32,000 nt of DNA from Promethearchaeota archaeon (lineage in GTDB: Archaea > Asgardarchaeota > Lokiarchaeia > Sigyniarchaeales > SOKP01), in assembly GCA_030606485.1 (NCBI GenBank), contig JAUWGH010000001.1:690001-722000 (forward strand), written 5' to 3'. Each line of letters begins with the position of its first letter. Position 1 is the stretch's first letter. The translations under genes and the position numbers were made by a program. The notes beneath the pieces are model-generated. The model was not told the origin of the DNA, did no database searches, and worked only from the letters and a program-made list of their open reading frames with translations. Below, piece by piece: positions 11,548-15,089 of the stretch.

Positions 11548-12117
11548 ATGCTGACTAAAGGTTTTTACTTTTATTCTTCTGAGTTAGAAAAAAACATTAT
11601 TATTTTATATCGTTTAAAAAGTTCTAAAGTTTTTCTTGAAAGTTTGAATTTGATAGAAAGTAAAAATCTCTCGAATTTCATTTCAGAGAATAATTTAATT
11701 GTTGAAAAATTTCAAAGTATTAATAATACCTCGTTAATAAAGTTGGTTAAAATTATTAATTCATATCTTAAAGGGCAAAGAGTTAATCTATATGATAGTA
11801 TTCGTAAATTAGGAATAATTATTGATTATAAAAAAACTTTTAAAACAGATTTTGCTTCGAGTGTAATAAGAGAATTATTAAAAGTGAAATATGGTGAAAC
11901 CATTTCCTATTCAGAATTGGCTTCTAAATTAAACTCAAAGGCATACAGAGCTGTCGGAAATATAATGCATAAAAATCCGTACCCAATAATAATTCCTTGC
12001 CACCGAGTGATTAACAAAAATGGGAAGATTGGAGGATTTATGGGATCAAATAATGATGAATCAACAATAAACCTTAAAAGAAAATTAATTAAACTAGAAA
12101 AAAATAGTAGAATGTGA
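11548..12117 (+). CDS. ogt: Methylated-DNA--protein-cysteine methyltransferase
   Basis: GETISYSELA...AYRAVG...NPYPIIIPCHRVI with active-site PCHR. Confidence 0.92.
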   Translation: MLTKGFYFYSSELEKNIIILYRLKSSKVFLESLNLIESKNLSNFISENNLIVEKFQSINNTSLIKLVKIINSYLKGQRVNLYDSIRKLGIIIDYKKTFKTDFASSVIRELLKVKYGETISYSELASKLNSKAYRAVGNIMHKNPYPIIIPCHRVINKNGKIGGFMGSNNDESTINLKRKLIKLEKNSRM

Positions 12118-12133
12118 AAAAATAATCATAAAT

Positions 12134-12466
12134 TTATTTAGTATTTTTTAAATCGGGAAATCTCTCAAAAACTAAATCTAAACCTTTTTTACATAAAGCA
12201 ACAATGCCTTTATTTTCATTTTTTACATGCTTCTGGAAAAAAGGTATCAAAGGTTTAGCAAAATTCCTATAATTAGTTATGTTATCTCTTTTTATATGCT
12301 TTGCCATATTATTAAATTGAATATCCAACTCCTTCAAAAGCCATAAAAGAGATTCATTTTGAGATCTTCTTAGTTCCAATGTCAATTTATCTGGATCTGC
12401 AACTTTTTGTAAATCAATATATTCAAACGTGTATTTACCTTTTTTATTATTTTCCCAAGCACTCAT
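12134..12466 (-). CDS. Hypothetical 110-aa helical protein
   Basis: ATG-started ORF with genome-typical composition; no recognised motif. Confidence 0.6.
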   Translation of the reverse strand: MSAWENNKKGKYTFEYIDLQKVADPDKLTLELRRSQNESLLWLLKELDIQFNNMAKHIKRDNITNYRNFAKPLIPFFQKHVKNENKGIVALCKKGLDLVFERFPDLKNTK

Positions 12467-12742
12467 TCTTTTATACCAGATTTTAAGTAATTTTAAGTCG
12501 TTGTTTATTATCTGAACTTACTAACAAACTTCAATTAATGTAAAGTAAAATGACTATTAAAAGTTTATAAATTTTAAGTAAGCACGTGCTAAACGTTAAA
12601 ATTATAAAGATTCATGAGATATTTAAAAATAAATATTACCGTAATATGATAAAAAATAGTTTCTTAATAATTAGAAAAAAAAGAAAATGTTAAAAAAAAA
12701 CATTCAATTTAAATTTTGAAATAAAATTATAAAGGAAGATCT

Positions 12743-12976
12743 TTACGTCAATTGTTTCATATCATCTTTCATAATTGTCTTTCTTTTTAATTCTCCCTTT
12801 GACTTCCCTTTCGATTTCTTTGGTAGTATATCAATAATTTGTTGAATATTGGCTTCGACTTGTTTATCAAGCCATTTAATAACATCATCTTTGACGTCTC
12901 CAGCCCTTCTTATCCCTAATTTACTAAAATACTCATCTACACGGCTTTTCATTAAAAATTTACTTTTATATGCCAT
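12743..12976 (-). CDS. Histone-fold protein with an extended basic L2 loop
   Basis: Helix1 LMKSRVDEYFSKLG, loop IRRAG, long helix2, then RKTIMKDD with R65-D72 spacing matching the histone R-D clamp (RKTIxxED). Confidence 0.75.
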   Translation of the reverse strand: MAYKSKFLMKSRVDEYFSKLGIRRAGDVKDDVIKWLDKQVEANIQQIIDILPKKSKGKSKGELKRKTIMKDDMKQLT

Positions 12977-13376
12977 TTTTTTTCCCTCTTTTTTTCTAGG
13001 TTAAAATTAATAAAATGAAGAAAATCATTTTTCTATTGATATAATTATTTTCTTTCTTAGTTTTTAAATGTTTTATTTTTACCTTATCTAGATATTGATA
13101 TTTTTGATTTTTTTGAATAATAATTTAAATGTTTTTAATAGGACTATAGAAAAATTTAGAAGAATTTTGTTCTTGTAATTGGCAATATTTTTATCTAATC
13201 AGTTTTTCAAGGGATTTGTAGAGAATCTGGCATTTTTAAACACCTATTGAGAGATTTATTTAAATTATGACTATTAGTTCATTATATTTGAAGAAATTAA
13301 CTATTTCAGAAATAATATTTAAATTAAAATTGTTATACATTATTTATCAATTAGAATAAAAAATGGTTATGAGTAA

Positions 13377-15089
13377 ATGTCTTTAAAGGAGATTAAACCA
13401 AAAACTTCTGTTGCGTATTTCAGTATGGAAATTGCACTTGACTCAAATATTCCTACATATAGCGGTGGTCTTGGGGTTCTATCAGGAGATACTCTTCGGT
13501 CTGCTGCAGATTTAGAAATCCCAATGGTTGCTATGTGTTTATGCTACTCATCTGGTTATTTTTATCAGATGTTCGATAAAGAGGGTAATCAAGAGGAGAA
13601 GGATATAAAGTGGAATTTCTATTATGAATTCGAAAAAATTCTTAATCCTATTAAGATACGGATTCAAGGAAAGGAGATCGCAATTTCCGCTTGGAAATAT
13701 AATGTTGTAGGACAGAGTGGTCACATAATTCCGGTTTATTTACTGGAAACAGATGTAAAAGAGAATGAACCTTGGCAGAGAGATCTTACACATGTTTTAT
13801 ATGATTCGACCAGTAGATTTCATAGAATTGTTCAAGAGATGATTTTAGGGATTGGAGGTATTAGATTACTTAAGTCGCTTAATTATGATAACCTTCAAGT
13901 ATATCATATGAATGAGGGTCATGCGGCTTTCATCACTTTAGAATTATTGAAAGAATTTAATGGCAATTTAGATAAAGTGAAAGAAAAATGCGTTTTTACA
14001 ACTCATACACCTGTTCCTGCAGGACATGATAAATTTGACTATAATTTAGTAAATGATGTATTTAGGGATAATTTACCAGCTAATATCAAGAAGTTGGGAG
14101 GAAAAAGTGAACTAAATATGACCATTCTTGCAGCAAATTGTTCGAGATACATTAATGGAGTTTCTAAAAAGCACGGTCAAATAGCACAAAAGATGATGCC
14201 ACAATATAAAATTGATTATATTACAAATGGCATTCATTTGCCTTATTGGGTTTCAGCACCATTTGACGAGATTTTCACAGAAAAGTGGCCTAGATGGAAG
14301 ATGAGGCCAGATTTTCTACAGAATGCAATAGAACTTGAAGATTTAGACTTATTTGATGCGCATAATGAAAACAAGTTTAAATTGATATCTTATCAAAAAG
14401 CCCATTCTTGGAATTTATTGGATGAAGAATTAATAACAATTGGATTTGCTCGTCGTTTTGCAACTTACAAGAGAGCCACTTTACCATTTCATGATATCGA
14501 TCGATTAGGAAAAATCTGTAGAGATAGAGTTCAATTTATTTTTGCTGGGAAAGCTCATCCGAAGGATCAAATGGGTAAGGATTATATTAAAAAGATATAT
14601 GATAACAGTATTTATTTATTTGATAATTATGGAGTAAAAGTTGTCTTAATGGAAAACTATAACATGGATTTAGCCCATTTAATAACGGCAGGAGTTGATG
14701 TTTGGCTAAATTGTCCTGATAGATATAGAGAGGCTTCAGGGACTAGTGGAATGAAAGCAGCCTTAAATGGTGCGTTGAACTTTAGTGTTTTAGATGGGTG
14801 GTGGCTTGAAGGATATAAAAAGAATCGGTTGGCTGGATGGGCAATCGGTCCAGATGATTCCGATCCAAAAGCAATAGAAAATAATTGGGATAGAGATGCT
14901 GAATCACTTTACACGGTATTAGAAAATGAGATTATTCCCACTTACATGGACCAGGATGAGTGGCTTTGGCGGATGAAGAACGCCATTGCACTTTCTGCGT
15001 ATTTCAATACTCACAGAATGATCCAGGATTATGCTGAAAAATCTTGGAATTTAATTAAACAAGATCCTTGGAAATTTATCCCAAAATAA
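13377..15089 (+). CDS. glgP: Alpha-glucan (glycogen/maltodextrin) phosphorylase, short type
   Basis: YFSMEI, YSGGLGVLSGD, HMNEGH, FTTHTPVPAGHD, FARRFATYKRA, PLP motif EASGTSGMKAALNG. Confidence 0.93.
   Translation: MSLKEIKPKTSVAYFSMEIALDSNIPTYSGGLGVLSGDTLRSAADLEIPMVAMCLCYSSGYFYQMFDKEGNQEEKDIKWNFYYEFEKILNPIKIRIQGKEIAISAWKYNVVGQSGHIIPVYLLETDVKENEPWQRDLTHVLYDSTSRFHRIVQEMILGIGGIRLLKSLNYDNLQVYHMNEGHAAFITLELLKEFNGNLDKVKEKCVFTTHTPVPAGHDKFDYNLVNDVFRDNLPANIKKLGGKSELNMTILAANCSRYINGVSKKHGQIAQKMMPQYKIDYITNGIHLPYWVSAPFDEIFTEKWPRWKMRPDFLQNAIELEDLDLFDAHNENKFKLISYQKAHSWNLLDEELITIGFARRFATYKRATLPFHDIDRLGKICRDRVQFIFAGKAHPKDQMGKDYIKKIYDNSIYLFDNYGVKVVLMENYNMDLAHLITAGVDVWLNCPDRYREASGTSGMKAALNGALNFSVLDGWWLEGYKKNRLAGWAIGPDDSDPKAIENNWDRDAESLYTVLENEIIPTYMDQDEWLWRMKNAIALSAYFNTHRMIQDYAEKSWNLIKQDPWKFIPK

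Follow-up and report, generated by a model that had tools for sequence, protein, structure and literature searches.

What kind of protein does a short, lysine-rich gene in the genome of a Promethearchaeota archaeon encode, and what is the basic segment that interrupts its predicted fold? The window, by which we mean the whole 32,000-nucleotide stretch that was analyzed, has a G+C content of about 29% and comes from a 3.75-Mb genome in 13 contigs with a completeness rating of 100%. The open reading frame begins with ATG and encodes a 77-amino acid protein with a pI of 9.9 and 16 Lys residues. A preliminary description of the locus had called it a monocistronic histone gene preceded by 400 bp of non-coding DNA. 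The reading frame and its isolation are as described: the gene stands alone, with a 400-bp intergenic gap upstream (12977-13376), shared with a divergent α-glucan phosphorylase-like gene at 13377, and a 276-bp gap downstream. The features of the gene are as follows, the last two being putative signals read from the sequence.

12743..12976, minus strand: coding sequence of the HLoC-type histone-fold protein, 77 aa, stop codon included (open reading frame list, family matches)
12984..12988, minus strand: Shine-Dalgarno-like GAGGG, 7 nt 5' of the ATG
12675..12704, minus strand: candidate terminator, an AATGTT/AACATT stem with a loop of seven T, followed by a T-rich run

The candidate terminator lies about 40-70 nt past the stop codon. 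The upstream gap was also considered as the site of a special element because its conservation within the genus looked high, but that conservation equals the level of the flanking coding DNA and no such element is claimed. An Rfam scan of positions 12100-13500 returned a single sub-threshold snoRNA match, which we take as chance. Downstream of the histone gene, a 110-aa open reading frame (12134-12466, minus strand) has no Pfam match. A 189-aa protein (11548-12117, plus strand) carries the DNA-binding domain of 6-O-methylguanine-DNA methyltransferase in its C-terminal half, and its N-terminal 100 residues have no domain assignment. In a sister family, a FAD_binding_4 oxidase gene follows the related gene on the same strand (L012:1-1392, minus; L014:1854-3230, plus), a synteny absent from the window, and the 0.67-1.2 kb upstream of the sister-family gene is free of open reading frames of 70 aa or more.

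An exhaustive HMMER search of 1.84 billion representatives (E≤1e-3) recovered 43 homologues of the window protein. These homologues, together with orthologues in several Asgard families, rule out a chance open reading frame. The 28 single-domain proteins among them were aligned (alignment A1), and AlphaFold2 run with this alignment gave a model with a pLDDT of 89.8; from the single sequence the value was 67 overall and 51-57 in loop L2. The following elements were assigned, those from the model being predictions.

12920..12949, minus strand: helix α1, residues 10-19 (AlphaFold2 model with alignment)
12902..12919, minus strand: loop L1, residues 20-25, with Arg23 (alignment A1 and model)
12827..12901, minus strand: helix α2, residues 26-50, ended by Pro52 (AlphaFold2 model)
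12785..12823, minus strand: expanded basic loop L2, Pro52 to Lys64 (residue frequencies, loop length, pLDDT and hhalign gap)
12761..12784, minus strand: RxTxxxxD motif, Arg65, Thr67 and Asp72 (per-position frequencies)
12749..12769, minus strand: short helix α3, residues 70-76, the protein ending at residue 77 (AlphaFold2 model)

The three predicted helices agree with the first helix, long second helix and short third helix of the preliminary description. The clamp it had proposed between Arg65 and Asp72 is likewise present, as part of the RxTxxxxD motif that is common to nucleosomal and α3 histones and was defined previously (PMC11390915). Over 72 distinct copies of the domain, Arg65 is kept in 92%, Thr67 in 99% and Asp72 in 86%, and Arg23 in L1 is kept in at least 90% of the family (alignment A1).

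In an exhaustive structural search with the model, about 43 of the best 50 rows were histone-fold chains, with Z scores of 6.1-3.8; the matches among these 50 included TAFs, CENP-T/S/X, H3/H4/H2A/H2B, HPhA, HTkC and HBb. HTkC matched at Z 5.0 with 25% identity over 56 aligned residues (chain residues 3-59 of a 58-residue chain), and HBb at Z 4.5. The Foldseek list also consisted mostly of histone folds, yet every E value was above 1. Profile alignment with hhalign to the canonical histones of the same genome covered the whole fold (63 columns, E 4e-5, probability 70%). The assignment thus depends on the make-up of the hit lists and on the profile alignment, single scores being moderate (Z≤6.1, Foldseek E>1). 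On these grounds a histone fold with a shortened α2 and a short α3, as predicted by the model, is well supported.

Standard sequence searches are nearly silent on this protein. Searches with the single protein found no match in Pfam (E≤10), NCBIfam or PDB sequences, and the family profile gave only noise-level matches in the PDB, with the DUF1931 chain 9QT0 at E 0.23. A Pfam scan of 28 family members identified no common family, one member matching PF00808 at E 0.12. When the source genome was searched with DUF1931 (PF09123), nothing scored above the cut-off and the gene was not matched. There was no tblastn match among 50,697 phage records and no fold match among viral models at E≤0.001, and a fold search of the ESM Atlas returned only unnamed look-alike clusters. 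The comparison with histone families that the preliminary description had suggested shows the relationship in the profile alignment with the canonical histones and gives this protein no direct match to PF00808 or DUF1931.

By sequence, the window protein is a member of the HLoC family, which was named by Cho et al. in July 2026 (bioRxiv 10.64898/2026.07.02.735847). Their Supplementary Tables 2 and 3 contain HLoC.1 and HLoC.2, which have the same loop motif, and Supplementary Table 3 prints the protein ABR01_05950. The latter is identical to the protein of a sister species (L017, in the same-genus genome G040), which is 93% identical to the window protein. An HLoC.1-like protein of the sister family shares 46% identity with the window protein (E 7e-20), and the family profile matches the window gene at E 3.5e-28. 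Named database members of the family come from Helarchaeota and Helarchaeales, and Cho et al. give its range as Lokiarchaeia, Helarchaeia and Sigynarchaeia. For four Lokiarchaeia in culture, their Table S1 gives HLoC shares of summed iBAQ of 2.4%, 2.0%, 0.93% and 0.21%. In their similarity network the family is peripheral and was "excluded from further analyses"; the words "loop" and "insertion" are absent from the main text, and one legend labels HLoC a "face-to-face histone". We found no use of the name in the other literature searched. A survey by Laursen and Luger (PMC13260811) was conducted with PF00808 and PF00125 and probably missed the family, since PF00808 does not detect the window protein. 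Novelty is therefore not upheld: the preprint had already catalogued the HLoC histones, among them an orthologue within the genus that is 93% identical, although HLoC was not studied there. What is added here is the fixed length of the loop, the tandem doublets, the fusions to TIR, WD40, SAP and LRR domains, and the patchy presence of the gene.

The size of the L2 insertion was estimated in several ways. In the hhalign alignment, the canonical histones of the same genome have an 8-residue gap facing Lys56 to Leu63. The Arg of L1 and the Arg of the R-K-T sequence are separated by 42 residues in the window protein and by 33 in HMfA. BLASTP against an Asgard DUF1931-type α3-truncated histone gave 30% identity over the full fold with 12 gap positions, and structural alignments with HPhA, HTkC and HBb left 10-16 residues of the model unaligned. 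An hhalign comparison with three Asgard α3 histones was weak (13.6%) because that profile is thin. Overall, the segment from L1 to R-K-T is about 8-13 residues longer than in canonical or α3-truncated histones, in line with the insertion originally proposed. Helix α2 is 25 residues long in the model, and since Pro52 cuts it about 4 residues short of the canonical end, the predicted non-helical stretch comes to about 15 residues versus about 5.

The preliminary description had seen in this stretch, which does hold 6 Lys among the 13 residues from Pro52 to Lys64, an internal tail open to modification. Residue frequencies over the 72 distinct domain copies define a different kind of element, with the family motif P-[KR]-K-[ST]-[KR]-G-x-x-K-G-E-L-K. 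Pro52 is present in 100% of the copies, Gly57 in 99%, Gly61 in 90% and Leu63 in 89%; basic residues occupy position 53 in 88%, 56 in 96%, 60 in 86%, 64 in 92% and 65 in 94%; and only positions 58-59 vary freely. The window protein is also basic at positions 54 and 66. Of 82 true domain copies, 75 have a spacing of exactly 12 residues between Pro52 and Arg65, and each loop of deviating length (8-9 or 16) belongs to one copy of a tandem doublet. One further match, P0010 (1182 aa, 17 "stretches"), was discarded as a low-complexity false match. In the alignment-based model the loop has a pLDDT of about 90, with isolated strand-type residues at positions 53 and 63 in the DSSP line. Because its length is fixed, its conservation is the highest in the family and it is predicted to be ordered, the L2 stretch is not a tail; as modeled, it is an ordered, family-defining element and the hallmark of HLoC.

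We surveyed 301 genomes of the phylum for HLoC and obtained matches in 15, the source genome included. These comprised all 4 genomes of the same genus, all 7 of the sister family (among them a 4.4-Mb single-contig genome) and one genome in each of two further families of the class, one of which carries four copies. Strong matches among the 301 genomes were confined to four families of the same class. In the source genome itself, a profile search found a single copy. The remaining two matches, both weak, came from another Asgard family (L022:1495-1734, plus strand; L023:1408-1653, minus strand). These 79-81-aa proteins match HLoC helices 1-2 at E 5e-6, lack the L2 insertion, have a longer C-terminal helix and have no Pfam match; they may be insertion-free relatives of HLoC.

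A second search, with the window protein as query, detected HLoC in 5 of 5 genomes of the genus, again counting the source genome. Another 76 genomes, drawn from the family's 12 other genera and in many cases 95-100% complete, gave no real match, so the gene is dispensable. This patchy presence suggests either that the gene was lost repeatedly or that a single fast-evolving lineage kept it. In the tree, the clade of the genus sits on a long branch of 1.48 changes per site. An origin of this gene from Helarchaeales was considered, given the shared R-K-T sequence and short L1, and set aside: the tree places the clade inside the Lokiarchaeal group, with weak support, and no transfer is claimed.

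The HLoC domain is also found in larger proteins. Tandem doublets include P0007, P0013, P0019, P0021, P0037 and P0039, among others. Fusions place the domain behind a TIR domain (P0008, P0011, P0032), together with a SAP domain (P0006), before LRRs (P0029) and after a WD40 propeller (L024). The three TIR proteins, from metagenomes, are 400-420 aa long and consist of an N-terminal TIR_2 domain, an acidic linker and two C-terminal tandem HLoC-type domains; such a pair on a TIR effector could be a DNA- or nucleic-acid-binding module in Asgard-like archaea. One genome of the same class (G294) has four HLoC-type genes. The first encodes the 456-aa WD40 β-propeller fusion (L024:355-1725, plus strand), and others lie at L025:1213-1839 (plus strand) and L026:1456-1770 (minus strand); the forms other than the WD40 fusion include a 208-aa protein with the domain behind a helical N-terminal region and a 104-aa protein with a Lys-rich C-terminal tail. 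A search for longer fused relatives scored none, which is weak evidence, and a link to the Lokiarchaeal "Rab GTPase histones" of Schwab et al. (A0A0F8XJF6) is therefore hypothetical. The doublets fit a histone-dimer unit and the SAP fusions fit association with DNA, and the TIR, WD40 and LRR fusions could point to protein-binding instead of DNA-binding roles.

Taken together, we consider it probable that HLoC is an abundant dimeric DNA-binding chromatin protein in which the basic L2 loop enlarges each L1-L2 contact. The protein would form the usual head-to-tail histone dimer, a unit supported by the natural tandem doublets, and would bind DNA non-specifically on its α1/L1-L2 face. With the loop placed against DNA according to general histone-dimer geometry, the ordered loop would project about five conserved Lys/Arg residues (positions 53, 56, 60, 64 and 65) at each of the two L1-L2 sites. 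If these residues widen and strengthen the DNA contact, HLoC would be an accessory chromatin protein, abundant and working alongside the products of the seven canonical histone genes. Hypernucleosome stacking is probably lacking, since the loop would sit at the dimer-dimer contacts of nucleosomal and face-to-face histones. The pI, the SAP fusions, and Arg23 and Thr67, which match DNA-contacting positions named in PMC11390915, argue for DNA association. A more specific version, which we put forward only tentatively, is that the fixed-length basic loop might give HLoC its own way of binding DNA; two Lys-bearing arms, one at either end of the dimer, could for instance clamp DNA or enter its groove and bend or bridge it like HU/IHF arms, and in that case the domain might serve in nucleic-acid sensing in the TIR, WD40 and LRR fusions of Asgard archaea.

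The conserved loop could instead be mainly an oligomerization element that replaces the four-helix-bundle or face-to-face contact, for which other histones use L2, α3 and the end of α2, and builds an HLoC-specific tetramer or polymer, DNA being contacted by the classical residues only. The insertion falls exactly between the positions of the residues that hold face-to-face tetramers (Arg at −6 and Asn at −2), the strict length and the conservation of Gly, Pro and Leu63 are typical of a packing interface, and the preprint legend uses the term face-to-face histone for HLoC. Five conserved Lys/Arg positions, however, would be unusual for a homotypic interface; natural doublets often have one loop of 8-9 or 16 residues, which suits independent DNA-contact sites more than a symmetric interface; and the Arg and Asn are unconserved at the sequence-equivalent positions 59 and 63. 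We regard this explanation as unlikely.

Considerably less probable is an internal tail that is flexible and regulates chromatin through acetylation or methylation of its lysines. In its favor are the density of 6 Lys per 13 residues, the low pLDDT of the loop when modeled from the single sequence, and the modification of lysines in N-terminal histone tails by Asgard archaea, which have writer and eraser enzymes according to the preprint (bioRxiv 10.64898/2026.07.02.735847). Tails vary in length and sequence, however, and this segment is Gly- and Pro-punctuated, spans 12 residues in 75 of 82 copies with near-invariant Pro, Gly, Gly and Leu, and is modeled at a pLDDT of about 90 with the alignment; the accessible text of Cho et al. 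reports no modification of HLoC. Regulation by modification as such would be compatible with an ordered loop, which could still be modified.

Least probable of all is that HLoC is a small non-chromatin histone-fold adaptor for RNA or protein, merely basic and abundant, as the fusions to TIR, WD40 β-propeller and LRR domains typical of signaling or immune-like proteins, the dispensability of the gene in most genera of its family, and the observation of Schwab et al. (PMC11390915) that some prokaryotic histone-fold proteins do not organize the genome would allow, but which is countered by the retention of the L1 Arg, the L2 Thr and the RxTxxxxD clamp, by the fusions to the DNA-binding SAP domain, and by a proteome share close to that of known nucleoid proteins. 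The original observation at this locus is confirmed and its reading is supported in part, the fold, the L2 expansion and the motif holding while the tail and the novelty do not.

Lokiarchaeia rank with the nearest relatives of eukaryotes in culture, and work on their chromatin is active. HLoC makes up as much as about 2% of the Lokiarchaeal proteome, yet it had been set aside as too divergent. As a finding it is no novelty: the family was already on record, and so was an almost identical orthologue. What sets HLoC apart is not a variable tail but a basic loop, strictly conserved and placed at the DNA-contacting L2 site. This loop, the doublets and the reuse of the domain with TIR, WD40, SAP and LRR partners provide testable hypotheses for a protein known by name only.

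The closest known proteins are HLoC.1 and HLoC.2 of Ca. Lokiarchaeum ossiferum B35 and HPsC of MK-D1, which fall in the same length class of 76-80 aa. The HLoC histones and the window protein have in common the Leu-Pro sequence, the 12-residue basic loop, the sequence R-x-T-I-x-x-[ED]-D and a short α3. Unlike other HLoC proteins, those of this genus have an L1 that is shorter by two residues, carry R-K-T where R-I-T is usual, and contain a KSKG-KSKG repeat within the loop.

Nucleosomal histones (HMfA/HMfB, HPhA; PF00808) share with HLoC the Arg/Ser/Asp pattern of L1 and the RxTxxxxD motif. HLoC differs from them in the lack of a PF00808 match, in an L1-to-L2 stretch longer by about 9 residues, in an α3 of 7 residues versus about 10, and in having no C-terminal extension for a four-helix bundle. 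According to the model and the hhalign alignment, the window protein has neither of the two nucleosomal traits that permit stacking through a four-helix bundle, which are a short L2 and an α3 close to 10 residues long. The source genome has nucleosomal-type genes as well: seven canonical histone genes with eight PF00808 matches, as six singlets and one doublet. Two of the singlets encode 82-aa, HLoB-like proteins with Lys-rich N-terminal tails (L002:1492-1740, minus strand; L005:1438-1686, plus strand), and the doublet is 156 aa long (L007:1267-1737, plus strand).

Face-to-face histones with a truncated α3 include HTkC of Thermococcus kodakarensis (PDB 9F2C), HLp of Leptospira (PDB 9QT0) and D4GZE0 of Haloferax. 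The likeness of helix 1 and of the C-terminal end to face-to-face and bacterial histones, pointed out in the preliminary description, is borne out by the 30% identity to the Asgard DUF1931 histone and by HTkC, which at 25% is the solved chain of highest identity to the window protein. Like HLoC, these proteins have a shortened α2, a short α3 and RxTxxxxD near the protein end; according to Schwab et al. (2024; PMC11390915), α3 histones have an α3 of 3-4 residues and an α2 that is 4-5 residues shorter than in nucleosomal histones. The 7-residue α3 of the window protein is intermediate, and most family members end 1-6 residues past Asp72. Face-to-face histones assemble two dimers into a toroidal tetramer, held together by an Arg and an Asn that are conserved immediately ahead of RxT (PMC11390915); the Arg of this contact is R45 in HTkC, and the R45A variant is dimeric. 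They lack the 12-residue loop of HLoC, and in HLoC neither the Arg six residues before the RxT Arg nor the Asn two residues before it is conserved: position 59 is variable (N/S/R/Q) and position 63 is predominantly Leu, although the insertion makes positional equivalence uncertain, and the last turn of α2 has no conserved Arg, only Lys50 in 47%. Because DUF1931 is blind to the protein, the Arg and Asn are unconserved and the extra loop lies exactly at the face-to-face interface, we file the window protein as HLoC, related to the face-to-face histones but not assigned to them.

HBb (Bd0055) of Bdellovibrio bacteriovorus (PDB 8CMP, 9EZZ) resembles the window protein in its small basic α3-truncated fold and its R-K-T sequence. 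Unlike HLoC, it is bacterial and has no L2 expansion. It binds as a dimer that does not stack in the manner of nucleosomes, and we propose the same mode for HLoC. HBb bends DNA according to PMC11317129.
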